Shown here in pieces: positions 13,723 through 33,752 of a stretch of DNA of 51,059 nt. Origin of the DNA: a virus; IMG/VR virus record IMGVR_UViG_3300028578_000001; one strand, written 5' to 3'. How positions within the stretch are numbered: position 1 is the first letter of the stretch; each line of letters starts with the position of its first letter. A program made the position numbers and the translations under genes. The notes beneath the pieces are model-generated. The model saw nothing but the letters and a program-made list of their open reading frames with translations. It did not search any database and was not told the DNA's origin.

Positions 13723-14971
13723 GAGCCAGGCCAATGAGCTCGTCTGGGACTGGAGGTTCTGGGCTCGGCCGAAGCAACTGGCTCCTGTTGGTGATTGGTC
13801 TCTGTGGATCATTCGCGCCGGTCGTGGCTTTGGCAAGACGCGCTCGGGAAGCGGGTGGGTCCATGAGCGGGCGATAGACTATCCTGGTCGATGGATTGCG
13901 CTAGTGGCCAGAACTCCGGCCGATGCTCGCGATTACATGATTGAGGGGCCCGGGGGCATTCTGAAGAACACGGCACCTTGGGAACGGCCACGCTGGGAGC
14001 CGTCGAAGCGGCGCTTGACATGGCCGAACGAATCATGGGCGACAATCTACTCGGATGACGAGCCGGACCAGCTCCGTGGCTTTAGTGGTGATACGGCATG
14101 GTTGGACGAATTTGCCAAGTTCAAGAACGCCCGTGAAGGCTGGGACAATCTGCAGTTCGGTATGCGGGAAGCGTCGACTGATCGCCCGCGCCGACTGATC
14201 ACCACCACCCCGCGCCCGATCCCGATCCTGAGAGAATTGGAAAAGAAGGGCACCACCCGGGTGGTCATCGGGACCAGCCATGAGAATCGGGCCAATCTAG
14301 ACCCCTCTTGGTATCAGGAGACGATCCTCGACTACGAAGGGACCAGGCTGGGGCGGCAGGAGGTCAATGCCGAAATCTTAGACGATGTCCCTGGCGCACT
14401 TTGGACGATGGACATTATCGATGGGCCGGCCGATGCGCCGCGACGGGTAAAGGAGGCGCCGCAGTTGCGTCGGATCGTGGTGGCGGTCGATCCATCCGGT
14501 ACGAAGGGAGACGGAGAGGGGGATGATATCGGCATCGTCATTGCCGGCCTTGGGATGGATGGTCGCGGCTACGTGCTTGGCGACTGGACCTGCCAACTAT
14601 CGCCGGAAGGGTGGGGACGGAGGGCTATAGAGGCGTACCACAACTTCAAAGCTGATCGCGTCGTTGGAGAGAAGAATTTCGGCGGTGACATGGTGCGGTT
14701 CGTCATAACAACCGCGGACAGAAAGGTGCCGTACAAGGACGTAAGCGCTTCCCGGGGCAAGGCCGTCCGAGCCGAGCCGATCAGCGCGCTATATGAGCAA
14801 GGCAAGGTCAGCCACGTCGGCTCCTTCCCCGAGCTCGAGGACCAGATGTGCGCGATGACGGCTAGCGGTTATGTGGGCGAGGGATCACCGGACCGTGCTG
14901 ACGCGCTGGTCTGGGCTCTAACCGAGTTGATGCTAGGCGGCTCAAGCTACAACATCAGATCCCTAGTCTGA
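13640..14971 (+). CDS. terL: Terminase large subunit
   Basis: WRFWARPKQL.. Walker A GRGFGKTRSG; GTG start with GGAGGA 5 nt upstream. Confidence 0.85.
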   Translation: MQGTCSSAELLASLTVAERQAAIASLTESQANELVWDWRFWARPKQLAPVGDWSLWIIRAGRGFGKTRSGSGWVHERAIDYPGRWIALVARTPADARDYMIEGPGGILKNTAPWERPRWEPSKRRLTWPNESWATIYSDDEPDQLRGFSGDTAWLDEFAKFKNAREGWDNLQFGMREASTDRPRRLITTTPRPIPILRELEKKGTTRVVIGTSHENRANLDPSWYQETILDYEGTRLGRQEVNAEILDDVPGALWTMDIIDGPADAPRRVKEAPQLRRIVVAVDPSGTKGDGEGDDIGIVIAGLGMDGRGYVLGDWTCQLSPEGWGRRAIEAYHNFKADRVVGEKNFGGDMVRFVITTADRKVPYKDVSASRGKAVRAEPISALYEQGKVSHVGSFPELEDQMCAMTASGYVGEGSPDRADALVWALTELMLGGSSYNIRSLV

Positions 14972-15005
14972 CGGCGGTAAGCGGGCACAGTCCCCAAGCG
15001 TAACC
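14968..15005 (+). promoter_or_regulatory. CTGACGGCGGTAA motif copy 1 plus phased GTAA box
   Basis: TGA is the terL stop; GTAA at +31..34; portal ATG at +44, no SD. Confidence 0.6.
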
Positions 15006-15012
15006 TCAGCCA

Positions 15013-16947
15013 ATGGCCGAAATGCGCCTCCGCTCCGTCCGCGCCAAGGCCGGCTACACCCTGGACGGCCTCCGCAACGCGCTGACCGGGCTCGGCATGA
15101 CGGGCGATCCGACCTACGCCAATCGCTATGCCTTTTGCCCTTTAGGCCCGGAAGAGATCGAGGCGACCTACCGCGGCTCCGGCCTGATGCGAAAGGCGAT
15201 CAAGACTCGGGCCCTGGATACCATCCGAGCGGGACGGGACTGGCAGGCCGAGGCGGACCAGATCACGGCGATCGAGGCTGAGGAGCGTCGGCTGGGGCTC
15301 AAGGCCAAGTTGTACGAAGCCGAGCTGCTGAGGGCGCTCGGCGGAGGTGCGATGATCCTCGGCATTCCGGGGGAACCTTCCGCCCCGGCCCCTACCGTCG
15401 CCAAAAGTCGGCTCGGCTTCATTCAGGTCATGAATCGCTGGCAGCTTCAATCCCGCGACTGGATTTCCGACCCGACGAAGGAAGGTTATCCCGGCCCGGA
15501 AATGTGGCAAGTCCAGACCGTGCAGGGTGTGGTCGACGTCCACCCCAGCCGGGTCGTTTGTTTCCGCGGTCATCCGTTGCCGAACCTCATCGGCGCCGAT
15601 GAGGAGACTAGGTTCTGGGGCGAAAGCCGGATCGAGCAGATGCTCGGCGCGGTCCAGAACAGCGACACGGCGCAACAGGCATTCGCGGCCCTGATCTCAA
15701 AGGCCCGTTCCACGATTGTCGGTATTCCAGGCCTTACCGACCTCGTTTCGACACAGGATGGCGAGCGGACCGTGCGAGCCCGTATCGCGACCATGTTGCA
15801 GCTCGAAAGCATGTTCAACGCGATCATCCGGGATGCCGGCGACGGAACAGCGGGGGCCGGCGAGACGATCGAACATCGCCAAGTCAACTGGACCGGCATC
15901 CGCGACGTCATGTACGCCTTCGCCACTTTCGTCGCCGCGATGGCCGATATGCCGGTCACGCGGCTGCTTGGCTTGGCAGCTGAAGGCATGAACGCCAGTG
16001 GGGACAGCCAGCAAAAGGACTACCACAAGTCGATCGGCGCGGATCAGGATTTGTTTCTGTCGCCATGCCTCGATCAGATCGACGTGGCCCTTATCCCATC
16101 GGCGCTCGGCTCGCGACCGAAAGAGCTATGGTGGAAGCACGCGCCTCTCGACACCCCCAGCGAAGCGGAGGAGTCGACCAGGTTCAAGACCACCATGGAG
16201 GCTGTCGAGAAAGCGCAAACCACCGGTGCCATCCCGGATCGCGCGTTCGCCGAGGGCTTCCAGAATCTAGTCATCGAGAACGGGTGGTTGCCAGGCATCG
16301 AGGGCCCGCTGAACGACATGGGGGATGATGAACGCTACGGTCTCAATCCAGAGCCTGACCTAGCCGATCCTGCCAGGCTCGAGGCGGCGAACGAGAACGA
16401 GGCGGTCGAGGAATTAGAGCGGCGCGGCGCTATCAATGCCGACCAGGCGCGCGCCCTGCTCACCGATGCCCGTCCTCGGACCCTGTACGTCAGCCGCAAG
16501 CTGCTCAACGCCGATGAAGTGATCAGCTGGGCAAAGGGGCAGGGATTCACCACGACGCAGCCAGCCGAGGACATGCACGTCACGATCTGTTTCAGCCGCC
16601 AGCCTGTCGACTGGATGAAAGTCGGTGAGGCATGGAATGAGGACGAAAATGGCAGGATGACCGTCCATGCTGGCGGCCCTCGCGCCGTTGAGCCTTTGGG
16701 GGACAAGGGCGCTGTCGTGCTGCTGTTCGGCGCGTCCTCGCTTTCCTACCGCCATGAAGGGATCAAGCGCGAGACCGGGGCGAGTTTCGACTATAGCGAG
16801 TATCAACCGCACGTCACGATCACCTATGACGTCCCGCCGGATTTGGACCTCGAGAAGGTGAGGCCGTATCGCGGGAAGCTCGTCTTCGGACCGGAGATTT
16901 TCGAGGAGGTGAACGAGGATTGGGAGAAGGGGCTCGTCGAGGCATGA
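15013..16947 (+). CDS. Portal protein (DUF1073-like) with C-terminal 2H-phosphoesterase domain
   Basis: Position after terL and size; C-terminal ~155 aa carry two HxT motifs (HVT at 16576, HVT at 16810). Confidence 0.75.
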   Translation: MAEMRLRSVRAKAGYTLDGLRNALTGLGMTGDPTYANRYAFCPLGPEEIEATYRGSGLMRKAIKTRALDTIRAGRDWQAEADQITAIEAEERRLGLKAKLYEAELLRALGGGAMILGIPGEPSAPAPTVAKSRLGFIQVMNRWQLQSRDWISDPTKEGYPGPEMWQVQTVQGVVDVHPSRVVCFRGHPLPNLIGADEETRFWGESRIEQMLGAVQNSDTAQQAFAALISKARSTIVGIPGLTDLVSTQDGERTVRARIATMLQLESMFNAIIRDAGDGTAGAGETIEHRQVNWTGIRDVMYAFATFVAAMADMPVTRLLGLAAEGMNASGDSQQKDYHKSIGADQDLFLSPCLDQIDVALIPSALGSRPKELWWKHAPLDTPSEAEESTRFKTTMEAVEKAQTTGAIPDRAFAEGFQNLVIENGWLPGIEGPLNDMGDDERYGLNPEPDLADPARLEAANENEAVEELERRGAINADQARALLTDARPRTLYVSRKLLNADEVISWAKGQGFTTTQPAEDMHVTICFSRQPVDWMKVGEAWNEDENGRMTVHAGGPRAVEPLGDKGAVVLLFGASSLSYRHEGIKRETGASFDYSEYQPHVTITYDVPPDLDLEKVRPYRGKLVFGPEIFEEVNEDWEKGLVEA

Positions 16948-17360
16948 CCACCATCGCCACCGACGGCAAGACCATGGCCGGGGATGGACGCGAGGTTGAA
17001 CAAGGCACAATTATCGGCTCCTTTTGCCGCAAGGTTCAACGGCTTGCCGATGGTCGGCTTGTCGGGGTGGCGGGCGACAGCATCGATGAACAGATGTTCC
17101 GGCGTTGGTTGGAGGATGGTGCCGAGAGTAAGCCGCGTCTGAAAGAATTGGTTGCTTTGGTGCTTTATCCCAGCGGGCGGCTCGACTTCTATGATCACCG
17201 TCTTGTAGCTTCTCCCATCGAAGCGCCAGCTGCCATCGGAAGTGGCGCGGACCATGCCTTGACCGCGATGGATTGCGGAAAGTCGCCAGAGGAAGCTGTG
17301 GAATATGCGGCACGGCGTGATCCCAACACGGGCGGGAAGACCACCGTCCTCTCGCTGTGA
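16944..17360 (+). CDS. HslV/proteasome-beta-like Ntn peptidase (138 aa)
   Basis: MTTIATDGKTMAGDG..KVQRL..VGVAGD..AIGSGADHA aligns by eye with HslV TTIV..AGDGQ..KVRRL..AIGSGG; ATGA overlap with portal stop. Confidence 0.6.
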   Translation: MTTIATDGKTMAGDGREVEQGTIIGSFCRKVQRLADGRLVGVAGDSIDEQMFRRWLEDGAESKPRLKELVALVLYPSGRLDFYDHRLVASPIEAPAAIGSGADHALTAMDCGKSPEEAVEYAARRDPNTGGKTTVLSL

Positions 17361-18157: not shown

Positions 18158-18196
18158 ACCATGTGCTATGATCCGAGCGCTACGGCGGGTCGAGTA

Positions 18197-18267
18197 AGAA
18201 AGGTAGATCAGCACGGTAGATCGCTGCCACGAGGCGGAGGCCGCCGGTTCAAATCCGGCTCTTTCCC
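18197..18267 (+). ncRNA. tRNA-like element (non-canonical anticodon/variable region)
   Basis: In a 137-nt gap: T arm GCCGG-TTCAAAT-CCGGC, D arm GATC-AGCACGGTA-GATC, 6/7 acceptor pairs; anticodon arm imperfect. Confidence 0.3.
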
Positions 18268-18362
18268 AATCGGCATCCGGACCGCCGTAGCACTTGAAGC
18301 GAGCCGGGCGGATGGTTGAGGTCCGCACCGGCTCTGACCACAACCGCGTAGGAGCGCGATCA

Positions 18363-18563
18363 ATGGCTGACTCTTTGAATACAGGCTTGGCGCGAGCCTT
18401 CCAAGGCGTTGTTCAAGCCGCTTTTGCGATGAGTGTTCGCGATGCGATGCTGAAATCGCTGATCGAGATGACCGTCGCAGAGATAGCAGCGATGACGCCG
18501 GAGCAACTCCGCGCCAAAGCCGATGAGTCACTGCTCCATTCGAAGATGATGGGCAATGCCTGA
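18363..18563 (+). CDS. Hypothetical protein
   Basis: ATG 18363 with AGGAG upstream inside ORF 18294..18563. Confidence 0.45.
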   Translation: MADSLNTGLARAFQGVVQAAFAMSVRDAMLKSLIEMTVAEIAAMTPEQLRAKADESLLHSKMMGNA

Positions 18564-18846: not shown

Positions 18847-18995
18847 TGGCCACCTTCGTTGTCGCGCTAGCCGCGTTCGCCTTGGTGGGGACAGGCATAG
18901 TGATTGAGCAGAAAGGCGCCCGTCGGGCTGCGTTGCCGGCGCTCATTTCCCTTCTCGGGCTGGCCTATGGCATCGTCGGACTTACCGCAACCTGA
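18846..18995 (+). CDS. Small membrane protein (49 aa), not in ORF track
   Basis: TGATG overlap; two hydrophobic segments; its stop is the TGA of motif copy 2. Confidence 0.45.
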   Translation: MATFVVALAAFALVGTGIVIEQKGARRAALPALISLLGLAYGIVGLTAT

Positions 18996-19029
18996 CGGCG
19001 GTAAGCACTCCCTCCCGCGCGCGGTAAAT
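18992..19029 (+). promoter_or_regulatory. CTGACGGCGGTAA motif copy 2 plus phased GTAA box
   Basis: GTAA at +31..34; ATG 19041 at +48, no SD. Confidence 0.6.
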
Positions 19030-19040
19030 CTCCGCGCGCC

Positions 19041-20183
19041 ATGCAGTTCATCGACCGCCTGACGATCGACCGCTCCCACCGGACGAAAGACGGCTATCTC
19101 CGCATTGTCGCCAAGGCTGCCCGTAGCGGAATCCAGCAATATCAAGGGTGCGAGGTCGATCCCGAGGGGAAGCACTTCGCCAAGGACCAAGCCGTCAACG
19201 TCTATCGGCCGCCCGAAGAGGTGTTCGACTCTCAGGCGGTAGCCAGCTTCGTTGGTCGCCCGATCACCGACGATCATCCAACCGTTGCCGTGAATGCCGG
19301 CAACTGGCGCGACTACAGCCGCGGCGTGGTCGGTGGGGCAGTCAAGGACGGGGAGTGGATTCGCTTCGACCTGGCGCTGATGGATGCCGAGCTCATCGGC
19401 AAGGTCGACGGCGGCAAGCGCGAGCTGTCGGCCGGCTACGGCTGCGAGCTGACGATCGAGGACGGCACGGCCCCTGACGGCACGGCATATCAGGCGGTAC
19501 AGCGCAGTATTCGGGGCAATCACGTCGCGGTTGTGGATAAGGCCCGCGCCGGCCCCGAGGCCAGCATTTCTGACGGCGGTAACAAGCTGTTCGAATGTTG
19601 CGATGCTGCGACTGTCATTCTGAACGCGGTCGACGCGGTTGAGGAGAAGCCCGTGACGAAGAAGATCATGATCGACGGCCTGCAGGTCGACCTGTCGGAC
19701 GCCAGTGCGGTCGAGACGGCGATCGGCAAGCTCCAAAGCCAGTTCGGCGATGCAACCAAGGCGAAGGAGACCGCCGAAACCCAGGTCGCCACCCTCACGA
19801 CAGACAAGGCGACACTGGAGGCCAAGGTCACCACGCTCGAAAAGCAGGTCGAGGACGCCAAGCTGACTCCGCAGGCGCTCCGTGACGCTGCCAAAGCCTA
19901 TCAGGCGGTGGTCGACAAGGCCAAGGCGCTGGGCGTCGAGATCACCGATGACATGGACGAGCCGGCCATCCAGAAGGCGGTGGTCGACAAACATGTCGGC
20001 GATGCGGCGAAGGACTGGACGCCGGAGCTGATTGCGGTGAGCTTCGCGACCATCGCCGTCGACACCAAGGACGGCAAGATCGTTCCGATCCACAGCCCCG
20101 CCAACGTCAATGATGCCGAGAAGGCCGTCGCCGACGCCTATGCCGAGATGGTTGCCGATCTGACCGGCACCAAGGCCGCCTGA
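19041..20183 (+). CDS. DUF2213 (XkdF-like) prohead protease/scaffold protein
   Basis: N-terminal globular domain followed by Ala/Lys/Glu-rich coiled-coil C-terminus; sits between portal block and capsid gene. Confidence 0.65.
   Translation: MQFIDRLTIDRSHRTKDGYLRIVAKAARSGIQQYQGCEVDPEGKHFAKDQAVNVYRPPEEVFDSQAVASFVGRPITDDHPTVAVNAGNWRDYSRGVVGGAVKDGEWIRFDLALMDAELIGKVDGGKRELSAGYGCELTIEDGTAPDGTAYQAVQRSIRGNHVAVVDKARAGPEASISDGGNKLFECCDAATVILNAVDAVEEKPVTKKIMIDGLQVDLSDASAVETAIGKLQSQFGDATKAKETAETQVATLTTDKATLEAKVTTLEKQVEDAKLTPQALRDAAKAYQAVVDKAKALGVEITDDMDEPAIQKAVVDKHVGDAAKDWTPELIAVSFATIAVDTKDGKIVPIHSPANVNDAEKAVADAYAEMVADLTGTKAA
19570..19607 (+). promoter_or_regulatory. CTGACGGCGGTAA motif copy 3 (inside the protease/scaffold gene)
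   Basis: Read in frame as S-D-G-G-N-K at the domain boundary; downstream GTA box not conserved. Confidence 0.4.
19653..20183 (+). CDS. Candidate nested in-frame scaffold ORF
   Basis: In-frame GTG 19653 with GAGGAG 6 nt upstream, 82 nt downstream of motif copy 3. Confidence 0.35.
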   Translation: MTKKIMIDGLQVDLSDASAVETAIGKLQSQFGDATKAKETAETQVATLTTDKATLEAKVTTLEKQVEDAKLTPQALRDAAKAYQAVVDKAKALGVEITDDMDEPAIQKAVVDKHVGDAAKDWTPELIAVSFATIAVDTKDGKIVPIHSPANVNDAEKAVADAYAEMVADLTGTKAA

Positions 20184-20196
20184 GGGAGAATTCGAA

Positions 20197-20673: not shown

Positions 20674-20686
20674 GGAGACCCAGGCA

Positions 20687-21658: not shown

Positions 21659-21662
21659 GCCG

Positions 21663-22243: not shown

Positions 22244-22919
22244 CTTCGCCGAGATCCGAAGCCGGTGCGACGGCATGATGAGGGCGGAGGTCTACGCGGC
22301 GATTTACGAAGCCGCCAAGGCTGCGCCCGGAGACATGTTCGCGGAGATCGGCACGGCGCACGGCGCCGCTACCGTCTGCCTGGCGCTCGCGGCTCGCGAA
22401 AGGGGCGGCGAGGTCTGGACGTTCGACACGTTCTCGTCTGGGGGCCGGAAGCAATATGCGGCCGACAATCTGGAGATAGCCTGCGCGAACATCGCTCATT
22501 ACGGGCTCTCAGACATGGTCCATATCCGCAAAGGTGACGCGGCAAGGACGGTCGCCGACCTTCCTGACCGCCTGATCGGGCTGCTCATGCTCGACGCGGA
22601 TGGGCGGATAGACCGGGACATGCGCCGGCTCTACGATCGCCTGGCTCCGGGGGCGACGATCATCATCGACGACTGCACCGACCGCGCCCGTGCCCGGGAA
22701 ATGGGCGATGGGGCGGTGCGCGTCGATCAGAAGCATCGCATAACCTGGCTGCTCACGAAAAGCCTGGAATCGGCCGGGCTCATCGTCCCGAAGCCCCCGG
22801 TCAACGAGACGTGGTTCGGGACGAAGGGGGAAGGCGCTATCTCGCACTGGACCAACAGCGCGGTCCTCGGGTGCTACAGGAAGCTCGTCTTCGCGACGGC
22901 TCACCTTCCGGAATGTTGA
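22230..22919 (+). CDS. Class I SAM-dependent methyltransferase-like protein
   Basis: MFAEIGTAHGAATVCLA (motif I-like) .. LLMLDADG. Confidence 0.55.
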   Translation: MSSPDFAEIRSRCDGMMRAEVYAAIYEAAKAAPGDMFAEIGTAHGAATVCLALAARERGGEVWTFDTFSSGGRKQYAADNLEIACANIAHYGLSDMVHIRKGDAARTVADLPDRLIGLLMLDADGRIDRDMRRLYDRLAPGATIIIDDCTDRARAREMGDGAVRVDQKHRITWLLTKSLESAGLIVPKPPVNETWFGTKGEGAISHWTNSAVLGCYRKLVFATAHLPEC

Positions 22920-23836
22920 CGATCCTGACCTGGTTATGGTCGCAGGCCGGCGGTCGGACCGCCTACACCGCCGCGCACGTCAACATCTGGGCCGACATGG
23001 TGCGGCGCAACCTGTCGATGCCGCACCGGCTCGCCTGTGTGACCGACATGCCGGCCGGGATTTCCAAGGGTATCGACATTATCGAGCCCCCCGGCGAATT
23101 TGAGGATGTACGCATCCCGACGTGGGGCGAGAATCGGGGGAGGGGCCTGCCGCAATGCTTTCGCCGCATCGCGCTGTTTCGGCCGGATGCTGGGCGCATC
23201 TTCGGCAAGCATTTCGTCAGCATGGACCTGGATTGCGTGATCGGCGCCGACCTCACACCTCTCTTTGATCATGATTACGACTTTCGGATGTACCGGGGCA
23301 CGACGTTGTCCCGGCCCTATAACGGGTCGATGCTGCAGATGAAGGCTGGAGCCAGGCCGCAAGTCTATTCCGATTTCACCGTTGAGGGGGCAACCGAAGC
23401 AGGAAAGAAATATCTCGGGTCCGATCAGGCGTGGATCAGCTATTCGCTAGGCCCGGGCGAGGCGACATGGGGGGCGGCGGATGGCGTCCTCGCCTACGGC
23501 TCTCGTCACAATGTCGAGGCCAGCATCCAGCGGATCATGTTCTTTCTGTCCCCGATCAAGCCCTGGGACATGCTTGCCGACCCGTGGATCGGTGCGCACT
23601 ACCGACGCGGCAACGGGCGCCGGGGGCTGATACTCGGGCGCGGAAAGAGCGTGTGGGACGAAGCGGAAGCCGCGCTTGAGCGGGACCGGTTTGATGGCGT
23701 GATCGCGCTCCGCGAGCCGGCTCAACATTGGCCTGGCGAGATCGAGGCCGTCGCCGAAAATGAGGGCCACGCCTTGAGGCTGGCGGCGATGCTCGGGTTC
23801 ACCGATTATACCTTTTGCGGGCGGGCGATCATCTGA
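22913..23836 (+). CDS. Glycosyltransferase-like protein (DxD)
   Basis: FVSMDLDCVI DxD-like motif; ATG 22913 overlaps the upstream stop. Confidence 0.45.
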   Translation: MLTILTWLWSQAGGRTAYTAAHVNIWADMVRRNLSMPHRLACVTDMPAGISKGIDIIEPPGEFEDVRIPTWGENRGRGLPQCFRRIALFRPDAGRIFGKHFVSMDLDCVIGADLTPLFDHDYDFRMYRGTTLSRPYNGSMLQMKAGARPQVYSDFTVEGATEAGKKYLGSDQAWISYSLGPGEATWGAADGVLAYGSRHNVEASIQRIMFFLSPIKPWDMLADPWIGAHYRRGNGRRGLILGRGKSVWDEAEAALERDRFDGVIALREPAQHWPGEIEAVAENEGHALRLAAMLGFTDYTFCGRAII

Positions 23837-23870
23837 CGGCGGTAAGCGGCCCAGCGCCCCCTTAGTAGAA
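23833..23870 (+). promoter_or_regulatory. CTGACGGCGGTAA motif copy 4 plus phased GTAG box
   Basis: TGA is the stop of 22913..23836; GTAG at +31..34; ATG 23878 at +44, no SD. Confidence 0.6.
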
Positions 23871-23877
23871 CGCCATC

Positions 23878-24288
23878 ATGGCCTACACCGCGCCGACGCC
23901 AGACCAGCTTCAGGCACGCTATCCGGCCTTCGCGACAGTTGCCGATGCGACCATTCAAGTCTGGCTCACCGACGCGGAGAGGTTCGTCGACGAAAGCTGG
24001 GCCGAAGCCGACTACGCCCCCGCTATAATGGCGTTGGCGGCCCACAACATGGCGTTGCTCGGCCTTGAAGTGACCACTGGCGCCGGATCGCTTCCGGCCG
24101 GCGTTACCCGCTTCAAGAGCGGCACGATGGACGTCACTCTCTCCGAAGCAGCCGCGTCCGCCGCAAGCAAGGGCGGCTATGCCTCAACGGTCTATGGTCG
24201 CGAGTTCCAGCTTCTGTTGCGCCGCAATTTCTCCGGGCCTTCGGTCGTCGCGGCCGGCGTGGTCCCGACATGCGAAGCGTATCGGTGA
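23878..24288 (+). CDS. Head-tail connector protein (DUF4054-like)
   Basis: PDQLQARYPAFATV..IQVWLTDAERFVDESW; position. Confidence 0.6.
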   Translation: MAYTAPTPDQLQARYPAFATVADATIQVWLTDAERFVDESWAEADYAPAIMALAAHNMALLGLEVTTGAGSLPAGVTRFKSGTMDVTLSEAAASAASKGGYASTVYGREFQLLLRRNFSGPSVVAAGVVPTCEAYR

Positions 24289-26086: not shown

Positions 26087-26112
26087 CGCCTTGCCTCGCC
26101 GAAGAACTGGTC

Positions 26113-26310: not shown

Positions 26311-26312
26311 GC

Positions 26313-26447
26313 ATGACCTTTTGGCATTGGTTGGTCCTGGTTATCGCCTTCGCCGCGCCATTCTTTCTGATTTATCTCGCTGTGCGCGCCGGGGTTCGGG
26401 CTGGCCTGCGCGACAACAAGCCTTCCGACCCTGACGGCGGTAACTAG
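26313..26447 (+). CDS. Small membrane protein (44 aa), not in ORF track
   Basis: WLVLVIAFAAPFFLIYLAV TM; reads motif copy 5 as D-G-G-N, then TAG. Confidence 0.4.
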   Translation: MTFWHWLVLVIAFAAPFFLIYLAVRAGVRAGLRDNKPSDPDGGN

Positions 26448-26468
26448 CTCCGCCATCCCGCCATATCG
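26431..26468 (+). promoter_or_regulatory. CTGACGGCGGTAA motif copy 5
   Basis: ATAT at +31..34; major tail ATG at +69 with GGAGAG SD. Confidence 0.5.
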
Positions 26469-26500
26469 TTCGCCGGAATTGAGGTTCCGGAGAGCGCGAG

Positions 26501-26953
26501 ATGTCCACTCCCATTGAAGTCGATTGGGCGCTGATCAAGCTTGGCGACGGCGAGGAAGTCGAGGCGTTCACCCTCATCTGCGGCATCGAGGACGTCGCGA
26601 TCAATGGCGGCGTCAACACCACCGACCGCTTTGTCAGGGATTGCACAACCCCCGGAGCCGTGCCGACCCGGAAGGTCAAGGTCAACGGCCGCCAGCTCGA
26701 CATTTCGGGCACCGGCCTCTCCAACACCCAGGAGGAGGTTCGCCTGAACGGCGCGCTTGGCAAGCGGCGCAACTATCGGGTTGAACTCTATCGCGATGAT
26801 GAGACGGATGCTGGTGTCCTGCTCGGCACCTATGCCGGCACTTTCGTCATGACGACCAAGAACCTCAACACCAGCCGCAATTCCGATGCCTCGATGGAGG
26901 TCAATCTCGCCAATCACGGTGACTGGACCTACACCGACGCCGCCGGTAGCTGA
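26501..26953 (+). CDS. Major tail protein (TP901-1 / GTA g9-like)
   Basis: 150 aa directly upstream of chaperone and tape measure genes. Confidence 0.75.
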   Translation: MSTPIEVDWALIKLGDGEEVEAFTLICGIEDVAINGGVNTTDRFVRDCTTPGAVPTRKVKVNGRQLDISGTGLSNTQEEVRLNGALGKRRNYRVELYRDDETDAGVLLGTYAGTFVMTTKNLNTSRNSDASMEVNLANHGDWTYTDAAGS

Positions 26954-27426
26954 TGGCTTTCACCAGCATTGAACTCAAATTCGCGGACGGCGACTATATG
27001 TTCGCGCTTCCGCTTCCCCAAATCCTTGAGCTTGAGCGCATCCGCGGCGCCGGCATCCTGGAGATTTACGGCCGCCTCATGGAAGGATGGTTTGTCTCTG
27101 GTGAGGGAGTCGAGTTCGGCGTGCCCCACGCCGGGAAGGCATACGTTCTCGACATCTTCGAACTTATCCGCCTTGCTCTTATTGGCGGCGCGAAAGGCAT
27201 GGTCAACGGGCAAGAGGTGGCAGTGTCCGCTATCCGAGCCAGGGAATTGGTTGAGGCATATTGTCATCCCGCGCCGATTGTCGAGTCTTGGAAAATCGCA
27301 AAAGCGGCGGCGTTCGCGCTGGTCGAAGGATATGACAAAGCGGAAAAAAAAAGCCTGGAGCCCATCAAAGATCCAGTGCCGGCCGCCTCGACGAAGGGCA
27401 AATCCTCGCGAACTGCGCGCGGATGA
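26953..27426 (+). CDS. Tail assembly chaperone (GTA g10-like)
   Basis: Position between major tail and tape measure genes. Confidence 0.65.
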   Translation: MAFTSIELKFADGDYMFALPLPQILELERIRGAGILEIYGRLMEGWFVSGEGVEFGVPHAGKAYVLDIFELIRLALIGGAKGMVNGQEVAVSAIRARELVEAYCHPAPIVESWKIAKAAAFALVEGYDKAEKKSLEPIKDPVPAASTKGKSSRTARG

Positions 27427-27557
27427 ACGTCGACCCCGCGACCCTCGGCTATCGGCAGTATGCAGCTTTGCTCCACGGCTGGAACGCCGAGCCTGAGGAC
27501 ACCCCCAAAGACCACACCCGCCTGAAGCGAGCCATGGACGCGCACACCGTCCACTGA
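27423..27557 (+). CDS. Small tail-assembly-region protein (44 aa), not in ORF track
   Basis: ATGA overlap; ..ATLGYRQYAALLHGW; its stop is the TGA of motif copy 6. Confidence 0.5.
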   Translation: MNVDPATLGYRQYAALLHGWNAEPEDTPKDHTRLKRAMDAHTVH

Positions 27558-27591
27558 CGGCGGTAAGGCGAAAGGACGGCGGGGCGTAGGC
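27554..27591 (+). promoter_or_regulatory. CTGACGGCGGTAA motif copy 6 plus phased GTAG box
   Basis: GTAG at +31..34; tape measure ATG 27599 at +44, no SD. Confidence 0.6.
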
Positions 27592-27598
27592 TTTGGCA

Positions 27599-30304
27599 AT
27601 GGCCGCTGTCGTCGCTGATGAGGTAATCGTAGCGCTTGAGGCGAGACTCGGTCGCTACACGGCGAACGTCGCGAATGCCGAGCGTCATTTCGACCGGTCA
27701 ATGCGCAACATACAGGGCGCGGCAACGAGAACAGAAGCCCGAGTAGCGTCTGCGTTTCGCAACATGGCGGGCGCCGTTGGCCTAACCGTTGGCACGGCCG
27801 GCGTCGTTCTCGCCGCTCGCCAGTTCCTCCAATATGCTGACGCCGCGAAGAACCTTGAGGCTCAGCTTCGGCTCGCCACGCGGCAAAGCGGTAGCTTCGC
27901 ACAGGCGCAGGAGGATGTGCGGCGCATCGCCGCCCAAACCCGTTCAGGGTTGGAGGAAACCGCCACCCTCTACGCGACATTCCAGCGCAACGCCCGCGAG
28001 CTCGGCATCACTCAGCAGCAAGCGGCACGGGCCACACAAACGGTCACCGAAGCCTTCCTGATCAGCGGCGCGTCGGCAGCCGAGGCGGCGGGAGGCCTGA
28101 GGCAATTTCTTCAAGGGATTCAGAGCGGTACCTTGAGGGGTGAGGAGCTAAATAGCGTTTTGGAAAACGCGCCCCGCCTTGCCCGCCTGCTCGCCGATAG
28201 CCTAGATGTGACCATCGGGCGGCTGCGCGCGATGGGGCAGGAAGGCGAGCTTTCCGGGCAAAAACTAATGAGGGCCCTTACCGATCGTCAGTTCACAGAC
28301 CAGATTGACGAAGAGTTCCGCCAGCTCCCAGTGACGTTCGAACAGGCGATGACGCTCGTCAACAATGCCGCGATCGAAACCTTTGGTGCCTTCGATCGCG
28401 GTGGGAGATTTTCCGAGGCACTGGTTAATTTCATCACTGGCGGCACCGATGGAATGGAGGACATCGCCAACGCTGCCGAACAGGCGGGGATCGAAATCCG
28501 AGCGGCCTTCGAGGGCCTGACCAACGTATTCGATCCTCTATGGCAGGCGGCCACGTCGGTTTTTGGAGACATCTCTGGACAAGCGGTCAATCTACGCAAC
28601 CTTATCGCCGACATCGGCGGTGCGATGGACTCGCTTGCCGGCATCTGGAACAGGGCGGCAGCCGGCGGCCGGTTTGGCGTCGTCACCATGCTCAATCAAC
28701 AGGCTCCAGGTTTGCCGTGGAATCGGTGGCTTCCTCCAGCGACGCCCGTTGGCGGCAATGCGCGTGAAGGAGCTTTGCGCCGGTATGATGAGGCTTCCGG
28801 ACGGTCTAGGCGCCGGGGCCAGGACGATGCGACTGCTCGCCGGTCCGGGGCACAGGTTCGGGATGGCCGGACCCTCATCGACCAAGAGTTCCTGCGTTAT
28901 CTCAATGAGCCGGGGCGCTACGATTTCTTCGGGAGGGCTCTCAACCCCTCCCGTCCATCACCAGCGGCCAGTGGAACGAGGCGCCGTCGTCGTGGGCGGA
29001 AAGGCCCTTCCGCAGAGACGCTAGCCCGCCAAGCGGAGGCTGAACGGGTCAGGGCGCTTCGCGAGGAACAGCAGTTTCAGGCTGAACTGGCGTCCCTGAA
29101 TGAAGATCTGCTCGCCGCCCGCCAAGCGATGGTGACGGCGGCCGAGGCCATTGCAGCTTTCGAGATCCAACAGATAGAAGCGGCACGGGACCGACAGAAC
29201 CAAGCCTATCGAGATGAGGCGGAACGGGAACCAGAAGGTGCCCGTCGCGAACTCGCCCGCGTCAGGGCGGCCCAGCTTGTTGAAGCCAACAATGCGGTAG
29301 CGGCGGAACGGGTGCGCGCTGTCCAGCTTCGCGAGCAAAACAGGATCGATGAGGAAAGGGTTCAGCTTGCCAGCGCCGAACTCGACAATGCGATCGAACT
29401 GGAACAAGCTCAGGGCGCGCTAGCGGCGACTGCCGACGAACGCCGAGCCTCAGCGCTTCGCCTGCTTGATCTACAACAGCAGCAGGAGCGACTAGAACTA
29501 GAAGGTCTGGTCCAGCTTCACGGCCTGAATGACATTCGCGGCAAGGAGGCTCAAGCCCGCCTAGACGCTCTCGACGCCATTTACCAAGCGCGTCGGCAGG
29601 GCGTCATGAACGAACATCTGAGCGTCCGCGATCGCTATCTCGCCGACCTTCGTCTTGCTGGTCAGACGATGAATGACCAGCTCGATCAAGTCGCAATCGA
29701 TGGGTTCGAGCGGTTGAACGACGAGCTTGCGGAGACGGTTGGGAATTTCCTTCAACTCGGCGGCGTCGCGGGACGGGTGCTCAATCAGATCATCACAGAC
29801 CTCGCCCGTCTTGCCATCCAGCGCGCGATCATCGGTCCTCTCGCGAATGCCTTCTTTGGCGCGGTCGGTGGTGGCGGAGGGGCCGGCTCCATAGTTTCGA
29901 AGGCGCTGACTGGTGGCAGCGGCAACGCCCCATGGTGGACAGGACCAGGATGGGCCACCGGCGGTAGCACTATTCTCGGCGGTCGGGCGGGCGTCGATCA
30001 GAACTTGCTTAGTCTCAACGGGGCACCGCTCGCCCGCGTTTCGCGCGGTGAGAAGCTGACTGTTTCTCCTCAAGGCAAGGTCGTCCAGCCGGTGTCTGGC
30101 CCTGCCGCGATGCTCCGCCCGCATATCACCGTCATTTCCGCCCCCCAGTTCGATTTACGCGGCATGATCGGCACCAAGGCTTTGTTCGATGAGGTGCAAA
30201 GGGTTTCTCAGGTGAACGCCGCTCAGGCCGCCGCGGCGATGGGCAAGGGTGTCCTTGCGGCAGTCCCGGGACGTCTATCGCAGTTCCAGTCGGACGGCAC
30301 CTGA
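27599..30304 (+). CDS. Tail tape measure protein
   Basis: About 900 aa, long helical Ala/Gln/Arg-rich regions, Gly-rich C-terminal part; position. Confidence 0.85.
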   Translation: MAAVVADEVIVALEARLGRYTANVANAERHFDRSMRNIQGAATRTEARVASAFRNMAGAVGLTVGTAGVVLAARQFLQYADAAKNLEAQLRLATRQSGSFAQAQEDVRRIAAQTRSGLEETATLYATFQRNARELGITQQQAARATQTVTEAFLISGASAAEAAGGLRQFLQGIQSGTLRGEELNSVLENAPRLARLLADSLDVTIGRLRAMGQEGELSGQKLMRALTDRQFTDQIDEEFRQLPVTFEQAMTLVNNAAIETFGAFDRGGRFSEALVNFITGGTDGMEDIANAAEQAGIEIRAAFEGLTNVFDPLWQAATSVFGDISGQAVNLRNLIADIGGAMDSLAGIWNRAAAGGRFGVVTMLNQQAPGLPWNRWLPPATPVGGNAREGALRRYDEASGRSRRRGQDDATARRSGAQVRDGRTLIDQEFLRYLNEPGRYDFFGRALNPSRPSPAASGTRRRRRGRKGPSAETLARQAEAERVRALREEQQFQAELASLNEDLLAARQAMVTAAEAIAAFEIQQIEAARDRQNQAYRDEAEREPEGARRELARVRAAQLVEANNAVAAERVRAVQLREQNRIDEERVQLASAELDNAIELEQAQGALAATADERRASALRLLDLQQQQERLELEGLVQLHGLNDIRGKEAQARLDALDAIYQARRQGVMNEHLSVRDRYLADLRLAGQTMNDQLDQVAIDGFERLNDELAETVGNFLQLGGVAGRVLNQIITDLARLAIQRAIIGPLANAFFGAVGGGGGAGSIVSKALTGGSGNAPWWTGPGWATGGSTILGGRAGVDQNLLSLNGAPLARVSRGEKLTVSPQGKVVQPVSGPAAMLRPHITVISAPQFDLRGMIGTKALFDEVQRVSQVNAAQAAAAMGKGVLAAVPGRLSQFQSDGT

Positions 30305-30864
30305 TGCCGGCCTATCGCGAGTCTTTCATCTTCCATATCGCGACCGATCCGGTGGCGATGTTCTGGACGGGGCTCGGCAACCTTCCGGTCAGTCCTGATG
30401 CGGTGATCACGGAAGAGGCGGCGGCATGGGGGGGCGGCGAGCTCATCAGCATCCCCGATTTCGAGCAGTTGATCAATGGCCTTGCCCAGCGGCTGGAATT
30501 CACGCTTTCAGGAGTTTCGAAGCGGACAATTGCCTTTGCCCAGGCCGAAGCATCTCAGGTGGCGGGTGCTCGGGTCGACATCGGGCGCATTACGTTCGGT
30601 CCTGACTGGCAGCAAGTCGGTCCTATCGAATGGGAATGGACCGGCGAGGCCCGTTCCCTGAGCGTCGGCAGCCAGGATACGCCGAACGGGCGCAGCCGCT
30701 CGATCACGCTTACGGTAGCCGCTGGGGACACGACCCGCTCGCGCGCGCCGCTCTCATTCTTCACGGATAGCGACCAGCGGCGCCGATCGTCAGACGATGC
30801 CGTGTTCAGCCATGTCGCGGCAATCAATTCCGGCACGAGCAGGCGGTGGGGGCCGGCGGCGTGA
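30304..30864 (+). CDS. Distal tail protein (hypothetical)
   Basis: Position after the tape measure gene; 1-nt overlap. Confidence 0.5.
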   Translation: MPAYRESFIFHIATDPVAMFWTGLGNLPVSPDAVITEEAAAWGGGELISIPDFEQLINGLAQRLEFTLSGVSKRTIAFAQAEASQVAGARVDIGRITFGPDWQQVGPIEWEWTGEARSLSVGSQDTPNGRSRSITLTVAAGDTTRSRAPLSFFTDSDQRRRSSDDAVFSHVAAINSGTSRRWGPAA

Positions 30865-31250
30865 GCCTCGGCGAATTCCTGAAGGAGGCAGCTTCGGATC
30901 GGGCGCCATGGAACTGTTCCACCCTGCCGGCGGACTGGTGCCTTGCGCTCGGCCACCCCGACTTCGCAGCGGAATGGCGGGAGATCACCGATGACGCCGA
31001 GTGCGAGAAGATCACGGCCGAGAGCGGGGGCCTGATCGTCTTGTGGGAACGAGGGATCGGCGATGCATTGCCAGCCGTCTCGCCAACCACCGCCGATGCT
31101 CTGAAGGCCGGCGACATCGCGGTGATTGCGATCTGCGGCAACGAGGCCGGCGCGATCTGGACCGACCAAAGGTGGGCGATCAAGGCGGCTCGGGGGCTGC
31201 ACTTTCTCCCTCCTGAGAACCTGCACATCGCCAAGGTTTGGCGACCGTGA
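30861..31250 (+). CDS. Tail-associated NlpC/P60-like peptidase (tentative)
   Basis: GTGA overlap; APWNCSTLPADW Cys motif; position equivalent to GTA g14. Confidence 0.4.
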   Translation: MSLGEFLKEAASDRAPWNCSTLPADWCLALGHPDFAAEWREITDDAECEKITAESGGLIVLWERGIGDALPAVSPTTADALKAGDIAVIAICGNEAGAIWTDQRWAIKAARGLHFLPPENLHIAKVWRP

Positions 31251-33718
31251 GCAAGACGCTCGGCAGCATTGCCTTGGTGGCAGCAGCGGTGGCTGTGAAC
31301 GTCATCCCCGGCGCGGGTCAGTTCATCTCGGCTAGCTTGGTGGCGATTGGCCTGTCGAAAGCAGCCGCGCTTGCGATCACGACGGCCATCGCATCGACGG
31401 CGACCGTTGCCGGTTTGGCTTCGGCGGCAAGCCTGTTGGGCCTTGGTCCTGGCGGGATCAAGCCAGAGACGACTCAAGCTTCAATCAAGACATCGCGCCC
31501 GCCCCGTGTTTCCGGGACCGGCAAATCTCGACTTTGGGGAGCTTTTGCCCTCTATGAGACCGCCAGCGACGGGACGGCGGTCGATCTCTACGCCGTGCAT
31601 GATGGTGTGATCACAGGCACCCCAACCTTCTATCTCGCCGACGAAGAAGTGACCCTGACCGGCAACATCGTCGATGAAGGAGACGACGGGCGCTATCGCG
31701 ACGGCGCGATCAGCATTTACTGGACCGACGGAACCACGCCTGGGAGCGGCATTCCGGAGATCAATGCTCTGATCCCCGAATGGGACGGTCGCGGCGATGG
31801 TGTCGTGCTGATGGCACTCACCGCCCTATCGGTGAAGGTGAAGCGGTTTCAGGAGACCTATCCGCAAGCTGCGGTGCCAGAGCTTTCAATGGTGGCGGAA
31901 TGGGGCCTCTACCCAGACCCGTCTGCGGTTGACCCGACCGATGAGGCCGGATGGACATGGACCGAAAACCCGGTCCGTCACCTTCTCTGGTATAAGCTGA
32001 TTCATGAAGGAGTAGACTACGCAACGAAGATCGCGCCTGTAATCGACAGCTGGATCGCGGCGGCTTACGATTGCGACGCCGCGACGGCCCTGAAGGCCGG
32101 TGGGACCGAGGCGCGCTACCGAAGCTGTGTCGCGTTCAAGCACACCGACCAGCATAAGGACGTGGTCGGCGCCTTTCTGGCGACGTTCGATGGGTGGATA
32201 TCGCCGCGACAAGACGGGGCGTTGAGCCTTTACTCCGGCCGCTTTTACGAGCCGACCGTCAGCATCGGCTCAGATGAGATCGTCTCCTATACCTGGGATG
32301 GGGTCGGCATCGACGATGACGCGGCGGTGAATGAGATCATCGTCAGCTACGTCTCTGCCGAGCACGATTACAATTCACCCGAAGGAGAGGCATGGCGGGA
32401 CGAAGACGACATTTCTGACCGAGGTCAGGAGCTGTCGCAGCCGCTTGACGTTCAGGTTCCCTCCTTCCCCCAGGCCCGCCGACTGGCGAAGCGCAAGATG
32501 GCGCGGATCATGGCGCCTTCAAGAGGCACAATCACGACGAACGTGGCGGGGCGAGCGGTGCGTGGCGAGCGCTATATCGACCTGCATATCGAGGAGGCAG
32601 GGACTGTTTTCTATTCGGGCCCGGCCGAGATTACCGTGCTGACCCGCAACATCGCTACCGGCGGGGTGACTTTCGCCTGGGTTGCCGCCGATCCCGATAT
32701 AGACGACTGGAACCCGGCGACAGAAGAGGGCGAGCCCGCCGCGCTCGGGGAAAGGGTGGCGGCCGCCACCCTCACCGCCCCCACGATCACTGCCGTCGTC
32801 GCCATTGAAGGACCGCGGTTGCAGCTCACCGTGTCCGGCCCCGATCGGGAGGATCTGACATGGTTCGGCCACACCCGCGTTTCTGGCGCGACAATATGGG
32901 GCACCGACCTTGAATATACCGAAGTCGCGAGTGGGACGACGGTTACGCTGGTGACCGATATCATCCCACCCGACGCCACTGTCGAGGTCCAGGTTGCCTA
33001 TCAAGTCGGCGATGGACGTATTTCGGCATGGTCGACCACCGCGTCCGGGAACAGCAGCCTTGCCCCCTATTACATGGCTTCGGGAACGGCGGTTTCGGGG
33101 AGCGGAGATGTCTCCCCCGCGCTTCCTGCCGGTCTCTCGGCGGACGATATCCTGATTCTCCTTGTGGAAACCGCGAACCAACCGGTTGCGGCACCTGCCG
33201 GTTATTCGCAAGTCACCAATAGTCCTCAGGGCGTCGGCGTGGCTGGTGCGGCTACAGCGACGGCGCTTCAGATGTTCTGGAAGCGGGCAACGGGTTCCGA
33301 GTCCGCGCCAACCGTGACGGGCACGACGGATCACAAGGTGGCGAGGCTGCTGGCGATCAGGAACTGCATCGCAGCCGGCGATCCTTATGAGGCATCGGTA
33401 GGAGACACGCTTGCCACCGCTTCGGCGACCGTCACCGTTCCAGGACTGACGACGCTGGGGGCGCGCCGGCTTGTCCTCGCCGCCTCGAGCCGCGCCAATG
33501 ACGACGCCTCGCAGGCGGCCTTCTCCAATTGGCTGAACGGATCGTTGTCGAGCGTGACCCGGCGGGCCGAAGGTGGAACCACTACTGGAAACGGCGGCGG
33601 CTTCGGGACGGCAACCGGTGTGAAGGATGTTGCCGGTGCGACGGGTGTCACGACGGCGACCATCAGCGCTTCCGCAGAGCAGGCCCGCATCGCGATAGCG
33701 CTGAAGCCTGCGGCCTGA
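31247..33718 (+). CDS. Tail tip / host-specificity protein
   Basis: 823 aa; GTGA overlap; position after the tail hub genes. Confidence 0.6.
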   Translation: MSKTLGSIALVAAAVAVNVIPGAGQFISASLVAIGLSKAAALAITTAIASTATVAGLASAASLLGLGPGGIKPETTQASIKTSRPPRVSGTGKSRLWGAFALYETASDGTAVDLYAVHDGVITGTPTFYLADEEVTLTGNIVDEGDDGRYRDGAISIYWTDGTTPGSGIPEINALIPEWDGRGDGVVLMALTALSVKVKRFQETYPQAAVPELSMVAEWGLYPDPSAVDPTDEAGWTWTENPVRHLLWYKLIHEGVDYATKIAPVIDSWIAAAYDCDAATALKAGGTEARYRSCVAFKHTDQHKDVVGAFLATFDGWISPRQDGALSLYSGRFYEPTVSIGSDEIVSYTWDGVGIDDDAAVNEIIVSYVSAEHDYNSPEGEAWRDEDDISDRGQELSQPLDVQVPSFPQARRLAKRKMARIMAPSRGTITTNVAGRAVRGERYIDLHIEEAGTVFYSGPAEITVLTRNIATGGVTFAWVAADPDIDDWNPATEEGEPAALGERVAAATLTAPTITAVVAIEGPRLQLTVSGPDREDLTWFGHTRVSGATIWGTDLEYTEVASGTTVTLVTDIIPPDATVEVQVAYQVGDGRISAWSTTASGNSSLAPYYMASGTAVSGSGDVSPALPAGLSADDILILLVETANQPVAAPAGYSQVTNSPQGVGVAGAATATALQMFWKRATGSESAPTVTGTTDHKVARLLAIRNCIAAGDPYEASVGDTLATASATVTVPGLTTLGARRLVLAASSRANDDASQAAFSNWLNGSLSSVTRRAEGGTTTGNGGGFGTATGVKDVAGATGVTTATISASAEQARIAIALKPAA

Positions 33719-33752
33719 CGGCGGTAAGGCATCCACGCGCCTAGCGGTAGGT
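33715..33752 (+). promoter_or_regulatory. CTGACGGCGGTAA motif copy 7 plus phased GTAG box
   Basis: TGA is the stop of 31247..33718; GTAG at +31..34; ATG 33760 at +44, no SD. Confidence 0.6.

Follow-up and report, generated by a model that had tools for sequence, protein, structure and literature searches.

Candidate late promoters with a phage-specific upstream box, predicted to yield leaderless virion transcripts, in an uncultured temperate phage

Introduction

In phages of Proteobacteria it is the rule that late genes are organized in polycistronic operons led by Shine-Dalgarno (SD) sequences. The virion genes of the phage genome recorded in IMG/VR as IMGVR_UViG_3300028578_000001 (51,059 nucleotides; this whole stretch, at its full length, is referred to here as the window) raise the question of how such a block is switched on. 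An initial annotation, made from the letters alone, had noticed that a 13-nucleotide motif, CTGACGGCGGTAA, hereafter the box, recurs at the gene boundaries of the virion block in a constant register with a GTA element and with the next ATG. It was suggested that the motif is part of a phage-specific bipartite promoter or activator site, with transcripts that begin at or next to the start codon and are leaderless. In this work we propose that eight box-bearing sites are probably late promoters yielding leaderless mRNAs (leadered at two of the sites), in which the box is the half bound by a dedicated factor. Should this be true, most virion genes of this phage group would be expressed from many small leaderless transcripts, an arrangement that would be unusual for phages of Proteobacteria.

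The first 127 nucleotides of the window are identical to bases 50933-51059; thus, the window is a complete, circularly assembled temperate phage genome of 50,932 bp, and the genes on the - strand at 38-51 kb are phage genes and not host flank. The temperate lifestyle is deduced from the presence of an integrase-like gene and a gene coding for a CI-like helix-turn-helix (HTH) protein (5039-5509).

Distribution of the box

A scan of both strands confirmed seven exact copies of CTGACGGCGGTAA, all on the + strand, starting at 14968, 18992, 19570, 23833, 26431, 27554 and 33715, and when up to two mismatches were allowed no further match was found on either strand of the window. In shuffled sequence (n=100, up to two mismatches) the mean was 1.13 and the maximum 4 matches, and none of the 100 shuffles reached seven; the pattern is thus genuine and far from random. 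A search with the core GGCGGTAA recovered an eighth copy, degenerate in sequence (GGCGGTAAT / CACGGGGCGGTAAT), at 13077-13090, ahead of terS. When offsets are counted from the T of the TGA within the box as 0, as is done throughout, this copy is followed by GTAG at +31 and by the ATG of terS (13123) at +45, and the set of sites therefore starts at the first late gene. The initial annotation had placed no copy outside 14.9-33.8 kb, which holds for the exact copies and fails for this one.

As far as could be tested, the box is not a generic or host-type dispersed repeat. In IMG/VR the 14-mer was seen as single chance copies in at least 120 contigs, and two copies were found only in a relative, L053. 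An extended pattern matched six loci among 185,579 species genomes, of which one is a clear prophage (in Allopontixanthobacter sediminis KCTC 42453, contig NZ_WTYL01000001; L125), one is a possible match (in a metagenome-assembled genome of Methylocella) and four are likely chance matches. A search of the literature for the motif string brought up unrelated primers and nothing else. The same motif was found at equivalent boundaries in related contigs (L053, L122, L142, L154, L155/L156 and L157) and in the A. sediminis prophage, which together with the window gave a set of 31 sites at eight non-redundant loci, referred to as type A.

Since identical 13-14-mers are kept at boundaries whose flanking genes are only 35-70% identical, the boxes could be taken for conserved boundary linkers that promote recombination and mosaicism with no direct role in expression. 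We find this hardly credible, as 13 bases are too short for efficient homologous exchange and a linker would not account for the phasing of TA and ATG, the lack of SDs, the one-way orientation or the copy inside a coding linker, all of which are described below.

A second alternative is suggested by the mycobacteriophages. Stoperators of Cluster A (the sites of L5 gp71) are found in both genome arms, are bound by the repressor and are not phased to the next start, and the start-associated sequences (SAS) of Cluster K are 13 bp long, lie 3-8 bp before start codons and have an SD-like core. Like the box, both are short (13 bp) asymmetric motifs that are repeated one-way at gene boundaries and overlap stop or start codons. 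The boxes might then be stoperator-like repressor sites that silence the late region in the lysogen, and the facts that the motif is a 13-14 bp asymmetric one in a single orientation at gene boundaries, often overlapping stops, and that the phage is temperate (integrase, CI-like HTH gene) would agree with such a role. Nonetheless, all sites lie in the late block, at 13.0-33.8 kb of the 50.9 kb, and the early arms have none; they are at a fixed distance from a -10-like hexamer and the next ATG, a feature that stoperators lack; no recognisable -35 is present for a repressor to occlude; and the presence of boxes goes along with that of a small gene ahead of terS and does not follow the repressor region. 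Repressor sites are thus a very improbable explanation. The boxes differ from SAS as well, since they end 32 nt before the ATG, are restricted to late genes, are paired with the -10-like hexamer and, at the portal and DUF4054 genes, are not followed by an SD.

Anatomy of the sites

The 31 type A sites share the consensus yTGACGGCGGTAA, followed by 18 unconserved bases and (G)TA. The TA begins at +32 in 21 of the 31 sites, and in 24 of them an ATG that opens an open reading frame (ORF) of at least 40 amino acids (aa) is found at +43..+46, as compared to 3% of background positions. When 15 leaderless sites were aligned, the distance from box to TA showed zero insertions or deletions, the distance from TA to ATG varied by a few bases, and the spacer sequence was not conserved. 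A fixed distance between box and TA combined with a free spacer sequence is the constraint pattern of a promoter, and if the hexamer TAnnnN at +32..+37 is read as a -10 element, the predicted start of transcription falls 7 nt later, on the A of an ATG at +44. At most sites the TA lies 12 nt before that A; between hexamer and ATG there are 5-10 nt, mostly 6-7, which would put the predicted start on or near the start codon.

It was shown that Alphaproteobacteria have leaderless starts, 192 of them in B. japonicum (PMC4842269), and that a TANNNT adjoining an ORF serves as the -10 element of leaderless genes (PMC12340547). At most of our sites 5-7 nt separate the end of the hexamer from the ATG, and the SD energies of the portal gene (-0.2 kcal/mol) and the DUF4054 gene (-0.4 kcal/mol) are near zero, as compared to the strong GGAGG-type SDs of nearby genes (-9 to -12.7 kcal/mol). 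The sixth position of the hexamer is T in only about half of the sites, and TA is found at +32/+33 in 21 of the 31 type A sites and in all ten sites of the type B introduced below. The remaining box-led starts have only weak SDs. We propose that SDs are lacking in box-led genes because their mRNAs are leaderless.

In the window all eight sites are on the + strand. Site 1 (13077..13125), the proposed terS promoter, consists of the box at 13077-13090, a -10-like TAGAGA at 13110-13115 and the ATG at 13123 (+45), and sits within the 3' end of an 87-aa gene (12875-13138). Ahead of terS, L154 and L155 have the degenerate GGCGGTAA(T/C) at the equivalent site, and L125 has a full box there. Site 2 (14968..15015), the proposed portal promoter, has its box at 14968-14981, TAACCT at 15001-15006 and an ATG at 15013 (+44); the TGA of the box is the stop of terL and the portal start has no SD. 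The box is present at the terL-portal junction of L053, L125, L142, L154 and L155, and an alternative box takes its place in L124 and L138-L140. Site 3 (18992..19043), with the box at 18992-19005, TAAATC at 19025-19030 and the ATG at 19041 (+48), would serve the DUF2213 gene, whose product is a Pa193_gp24-like protease/scaffold, with a predicted leader of 0-4 nt; orthologous sites were found in L053, L122, L125, L142, L154 and L155. Site 5 (23833..23880; box 23833-23846, TAGAAC 23866-23871, ATG 23878 at +44) is the proposed promoter of the DUF4054 or E217_gp27-like head-tail gene, which starts with no SD and has orthologous sites in L122 and L154. The TGA of this box closes the ORF at 22811-23836, for which the earlier label of a glycosyltransferase-like gene has no support in Pfam. 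Site 7 (27554..27601; box 27554-27567, TAGGCT 27587-27592, ATG 27599 at +44) precedes the tape measure gene and its TGA closes a 44-aa ORF (27423-27557), and Site 8 (33715..33762; box 33715-33728, TAGGTT 33748-33753, ATG 33760 at +44) precedes a gene for a 906-aa distal tail protein and closes the ORF at 31238-33718. The start positions first reported, namely +44 at 15013, 23878, 27599 and 33760, +48 at 19041 and +69 at 26501, were all reproduced, as were the five copies whose embedded TGA ends the upstream ORF and the bases at +31..+34, which are GTAA, GTAA, GTAG, GTAG and GTAG in these five and ATAT at 26431.

In the two remaining copies (19570 and 26431), which end in TAAC, the box is read in frame as Asp-Gly-Gly-Asn, as had been noticed; our amendment is that both fit the same model as leadered promoters. 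Site 6 (26431..26503) has the box at 26431-26444, TATCGT at 26464-26469, an SD (GGAGAG) at 26489-26494 and the ATG at 26501 (+69). We read it as a leadered version of the same promoter, in which transcription would begin 25 nt ahead of an SD-led start codon (predicted leader ~25 nt). The gene at 26501-26953 matched no family when compared to Pfam, and the name of major tail gene is that of the initial annotation.

Site 4 (19570..19655) lies inside the DUF2213 gene (19041-20183), in the linker between the DUF2213 domain and a coiled-coil, scaffold-like domain. Its box (19570-19583) is followed by a weak -10 region at 19603-19608, and 82 nt after the copy an SD (GAGGAG, 19641-19646) leads, after six bases, to an in-frame GTG at 19653, codon 205 of the gene. 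This internal site is kept in place in five type A loci (window, L053, L142, L154 and L155) and in two of type B (L124 at 8980 and L140 at 16975), where the internal box translates as DERTY. In addition, nine out of nine DUF2213 homologues have an SD and an in-frame GTG or ATG at this place, with Met or Val 6-8 residues before a conserved DGLxV. These features suggest that Site 4 is an internal promoter for a nested C-terminal scaffold protein and that 19653-20183 is probably a nested scaffold gene, with a predicted product of roughly 19 kDa. For annotation, the box would provide an independent guide to true start codons and to nested genes such as this internal scaffold, and would mark late-gene boundaries in metagenomic phage contigs of this group.

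Box turnover in sister phages

In L124 and in L138-L140, the last three of which are near-identical to one another at these sites, the box is replaced by AGCGAACCTACA, and these loci are referred to as type B. Their relatedness to the window varies, with a major capsid protein that is 66% identical in L124 and 36% in L140. The alternative box was found between terL and portal, both before and within DUF2213, and ahead of the DUF4054 region, with the TA at +32 in 10 of 10 sites, the ATG at +44/45 and a downstream element that reads (C)GTAA(TTT). At 15152 of L124 the alternative box comes with the same TATCGT hexamer as Site 6, a similar downstream sequence and an SD-like GAGAGGGA. It appears that the upstream element was swapped and that the -10-like element and all spacings were kept. 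A swap with identical geometry leads one to expect a phage-specific, co-evolving factor acting in trans, and is hard to reconcile with pairing of the box to the conserved host rRNA. A possible third box type, CCTCCGTAATTCC, stands before the portal gene of L143; being a single site, it was not counted.

Not everything about the sites agrees with a promoter. The -10-like element is weak, and the TA is missing in 10 of the 31 type A sites, including all five internal ones and the three of L157; the distance from box to hexamer is 1-2 bp above the canonical -35/-10 spacing; and within +12 to +43 of the sites of the window and its relatives the unconserved stretch between box and hexamer has 45% C and 9% T on the coding strand. 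The TGA of the box is the stop of the upstream gene at five of the six gene-end sites of the window and at most junctions elsewhere (TAA in L157 at 2366), as compared to an expected one third, and ATG, GTG and TTG are depleted between box and ATG (8 versus 18 +/- 3.6 in shuffles). These last two features, together with the downstream starts that have no SD and the near constant distance between box and AUG, speak for an alternative in which the box acts in the mRNA, either as a termination-reinitiation signal or as the site of a phage translational activator, and translation of one long transcript starts again at an SD-less AUG 44 nt on. Even so, we judge this alternative quite improbable. The tightest constraint is that from box to TA and not from box to AUG, and a translational signal would leave the TAnnnN hexamer, 12 nt ahead of the AUG, with no role. 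At the terS, internal and major-tail copies translation runs through the box in another frame, and box and geometry are still kept; in most type B sites the corresponding position of the box is not a stop codon, and the turnover of the box excludes pairing with conserved rRNA. Nor was a conserved RNA structure seen: RNAalifold gave 0 conserved pairs on the sites, single folds were no better than shuffles (z -0.9 to +1.3) and no Rfam family overlaps the sites, on which grounds a structured cis-regulatory RNA was rejected. In view of the excess of TGA stops, the depletion of start triplets, the enrichment in C and the missing -10s, a translational role stays as a minor rival or as a second function of the box.

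Proposed promoters

From the fixed box-TA spacing, the position of the TA ahead of an SD-less ATG, the swap of the box and the lack of RNA structure we infer that the bipartite, phage-specific promoter first suggested is probably the right kind of explanation. In the model that we propose the promoter would have three elements. The first is the box, an asymmetric element of 14 bp (CTGACGGCGGTAAs) that would lie at about -45 to -32, with its centre near -38.5, and replace the -35 element; class II activators sit near this position. It would be followed by an 18-bp spacer, fixed in length and free in sequence, and by a weak -10 hexamer at -12 to -7, TAnnnN, frequently with a G in front of it. 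The two elements had been delimited by the initial annotation as GGTAAG and GTAG. The GGTAA of the former is retained as part of the conserved 14-mer, and the latter, in which the TA is indeed phased, is better read as the -10 hexamer. At six sites transcription would begin at the start codon or a few bases from it, resulting in leaderless mRNAs for terS, the portal, the protease/scaffold, the head-tail connector, the tape measure and the distal tail protein. The other two sites would give leadered, SD-bearing mRNAs for the major tail gene and for the nested scaffold within the DUF2213 gene. The box would be read by a phage factor encoded in the preceding early/middle operon, together with the host RNA polymerase holoenzyme.

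It had also been suggested that the sites cut the late region into about six units. Intrinsic terminators were not enriched in the window and none coincided with the sites, which argues against separate units and for additive internal promoters in one co-directional block. A sigma-70-like match (TTGGCG-16-TACAAT) was seen at 12943-12970, inside the 87-aa gene and ~150 nt ahead of terS; it might act as an ordinary promoter for the first late genes.

The sites themselves are not ordinary promoters of this type, as a scan with the sigma-70 consensus (TTGACA-N17-TATAAT) found none of the eight and revealed no enrichment. The TTGACG-like 5' end of the box is 27 bp away from the TA hexamer, as compared to the 16-18 bp spacing of a sigma-70 -35. 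A T7-type promoter, in which a block of ~20 bp covers the start, is not seen either, the spacer and start region being unconserved and the 826- and 906-aa proteins having no RNA_pol match.

An alternative sigma factor, either a host one of the extracytoplasmic function (ECF) type or an unrecognised phage sigma-like protein, might read the sites with GGTAA(s) as -35 and (C/G)GTA as -10. ECF promoters are of the GGAAC-N16-17-CGT type, which GGTAAC/G ... CGTA resembles, the element pair is strictly spaced, and the turnover of the box is reminiscent of co-evolving sigma/promoter pairs. In our opinion this is unlikely, since the spacing is 18 and not 16-17, the base after GGTAA varies (G, C, A, T), the type B box has CCTACA and thus no AAC core, and the conserved block reaches 8 bp further upstream than a region 4 site. 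A host sigma factor would in addition leave the differing boxes of sister phages unexplained, unless their hosts differ. Pfam searches for RNA polymerase and sigma domains in the ORFs scanned in the window found no RNA polymerase and no significant sigma domain; besides a sub-threshold Sigma70_r4 match (E 0.0094) in the HNH protein at 2626-3504, no Sigma70_r2 or r4 was detected. A phage RNA polymerase or sigma factor was for this reason rejected as the reader of the box, and the combination that marks an ECF promoter (an AAC -35, a CGT -10, 16-17 bp between them and a cognate sigma) was not found at the sites. The sites thus fail to show the defining features of sigma-70, ECF and T7-type promoters, as of stoperators and SAS.

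The candidate factor

Which protein might read the box? Only two non-structural genes, at 12291-12878 and 12875-13138, are common to the box-bearing phages within 10 kb upstream of terS. The second, on the + strand and called by an independent pipeline as well, has a GTG start that overlaps the stop of the first and itself overlaps terS; it encodes an 87-aa protein, modelled by AlphaFold2 as four helices (mean pLDDT 69) and predicted to form a bundle. We put this protein forward as the candidate specificity factor that would read the box, probably together with the product of the adjoining + strand gene, a regulator homologue that resembles the LmbU family and has a ParB-type HTH.

A profile of the 87-aa family, which has about 156 clusters in 1.8 billion representatives, matched every box-bearing locus that covers the region upstream of terS (the window, L053, L125, L142, L154, L155 and L157). 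It also matched the type B loci L124 and L138-140 as well as L143, and gave no match in the box-less loci that share the neighbour gene (L135, L137, L141, L144 and L146-152). L157 has different structural genes, yet three boxes were found there along with three family members, two of which are box-led. The first residues of the third helix are RT(D/N) in type A and (S/R)R(L/S)T in type B. The 87-aa module is fused to the LmbU-like protein in L138-L140, and the modules of L124 and L140 have an extra C-terminal domain.

Several findings count against this assignment. The protein had no match in Pfam, PHROGs, NCBIfam, PDB sequences or PDB folds (Foldseek), nor, by tblastn, in 50,697 phage records; two divergent subfamilies accompany the same box; the LmbU-like neighbour is found in box-less phages too and does not vary with box type; and the association between family and box may in part be shared ancestry and is not independent of phylogeny. 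Weighing both sides, we regard it as possible, and somewhat short of probable, that the 87-aa protein is the reader of the box. The wider scheme that would follow is one that we put forward still more tentatively. A family of small helical proteins (~60 aa per module, sometimes 2-5 in tandem, and sometimes fused or adjacent to LmbU/ParB-like HTH proteins) would retarget the host RNA polymerase to box promoters that have no -35 and fire on the AUG, so that in temperate alphaproteobacterial phages the virion genes would be leaderless and box and factor would diverge in a matched manner, with the UGA of the box perhaps serving also as the upstream stop. Should the sites be promoters of the kind proposed, a testable function would be available for a protein family with no annotation in Pfam, PHROGs, NCBIfam or PDB, and a compact, orthogonal promoter/factor pair of at least two natural specificities would be available for GC-rich Alphaproteobacteria.

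Among the family members P0140, P0176, P0151 and P0217, some have 2-5 tandem modules of ~60 aa (P..F...F..G...........RW.E..GG..L), and others add a C-terminal RNGG(W/F)...W(R/W)VG domain. In L160, 11 copies of GGTGGTAAC were found in both orientations at 5800-6063, as compared to 0.9 by chance, between a VapE-like primase gene and a family member upstream of terS. The repeat resembles the box core GGCGGTAAC, and the array could represent origin iterons or a binding array for the 87-aa family protein.

The LmbU-like protein at 12291-12878 matched the LmbU model NF038070 with an E of 2e-26 and 93 bits over model positions 3-122, which include the DNA-binding region; the score is below the curated cut-off of 125 bits. 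LmbU of Streptomyces lincolnensis is a DNA-binding activator of promoters that binds the GC-rich site CGCCGGCG (PMC6510168). The likeness has its limits, as homologues of the phage protein are also found in box-less phages or fused to MT-A70, and the box is not a palindrome. The protein was rejected as the specificity determinant, its HTH region being nearly the same in type A and type B and box-less phages having it too. The homologues P0076 and P0113 are fusions of the LmbU-like domain with an adenine methylase of the MT-A70 (IME4) type, suggesting that the former may be a general DNA-targeting domain.

Comparison with known systems

The T4 MotA middle promoters and the late promoters of Mu (C/Mor) and P2 (Ogr) are activator-dependent phage promoters. 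With these the proposed sites would have in common a phage-specific box that replaces or supplements the -35, a weak -10 read by the host RNA polymerase, several copies through the late genes and an activator made earlier in infection. They differ in the sequence, asymmetry and position (-45..-32) of the box and in the predicted start on the ATG, and the 87-aa candidate shows no resemblance to any of MotA, AsiA, Mor, C and Ogr. What is new here appears to be a box variant in an uncultured phage group; a phage control signal of the activator-dependent kind is familiar.

In phages of Gram-positive bacteria the genes of late regulators of the RinA, ArpU and Ltr families lie immediately before terS, as reportedly described by Quiles-Puchalt and colleagues in 2013. 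The candidate gene is likewise a small regulator gene directly upstream of terS that would switch on packaging and virion genes, with no match to these proteins in sequence or family. Such systems typically have one promoter before terS, as compared to the eight dispersed sites proposed here, and to our knowledge they are not associated with leaderless transcripts.

Leaderless middle and late genes were described for the Thermus phage phiYS40 (Sevostyanova et al. 2007, as summarized in PMC4842269 and PMC12340547). As far as these summaries go, phiYS40 and the TANNNT promoters of Deinococcus-Thermus and Actinobacteria resemble our sites in a -10 fixed 6-7 nt before the start, mRNAs that begin at the AUG, no need for an SD and a temporal class of genes, and differ in host lineage; the long upstream box, which varies between sister phages, is added here.

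In Alphaproteobacteria, gene transfer agents are controlled by GafA or GafYZ, of which GafY binds far upstream with integration host factor at a single cluster promoter and GafZ acts in anti-termination (PMC11150451, PMC9638019). The parallel is that of a phage-derived late switch in Alphaproteobacteria, in which a degenerate -35 is rescued by a dedicated activator, and the window does have a GafY-type protein with a DnaA domain IV. Nevertheless, the DnaA-like gene is absent from the box-bearing L142 and L155 and does not follow the boxes, and its product (10641-11243) was on this basis rejected as a GafY-like box factor. This 200-aa protein consists of a DnaA domain IV HTH (PF08299, E 4.5e-29) and a Cys-rich tail, and its gene has a strong SD. 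Some relatives have the protein and others do not, and it is either of the GafY/GafA type or a replication-origin binder.

Genome context and additional observations

The rightward block of the window starts with methylases, HNH endonucleases, RusA and the DnaA-domain-IV protein, followed by terS, terL and a portal gene fused to Acb1. It continues with MuF, the DUF2213 protease/scaffold, cement, major capsid, head-tail genes, tape measure and distal tail genes. The phage is siphovirus-like and temperate, with a host probably among the Alphaproteobacteria, as suggested by the box-bearing prophage in A. sediminis (Sphingomonadales). Public metagenome runs hold independent assemblies of the same genome. 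When 13-34 kb was compared with 50,697 phage records for near-identical sequence, no match was found, and the nearest cultured relatives by capsid are below 50% identity; a search of genome contigs with the capsid protein found no match.

The portal protein (15013-16947) has a C-terminal Acb1 domain (residues 492-642), a phosphodiesterase directed against the cyclic-oligonucleotide-based antiphage signalling system (CBASS), and its homologue in L155 (12661-15075) adds ART / ADP-ribosyl-exotoxin-like domains. In both cases a virion portal is joined to domains of an anti-defence or effector kind.

Upstream of the tape measure gene, a 157-aa gene (26953-27426) is followed by the 44-aa ORF that ends in the box of Site 7 (27423-27557), which occupies the usual place of a frameshifted tail-assembly-chaperone extension. 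Between MuF and small ORFs, a tRNA-like gene was found at 18197-18267 (Rfam tRNA, 40.1 bits), whose anticodon loop has just 4 nt (CUGCC-ACGA-GGCGG) and to which ARAGORN assigns no anticodon; this may be a decayed tRNA or a tRNA-like element. A tRNA-Leu(CAG) called by ARAGORN at 33233-33313, inside the 826-aa tail ORF, has no Rfam support and is probably a false positive. In the early part of the genome, two paralogues of an N6/N4 DNA methylase (6436-7227 and 8571-9257) are 76% identical at their 5' ends and 71% identical in their 3' parts, and HNH endonuclease genes (8039-8434, 9546-10094 and 2626-3504) are interspersed among these duplicated methylases, in what looks like homing-endonuclease activity.

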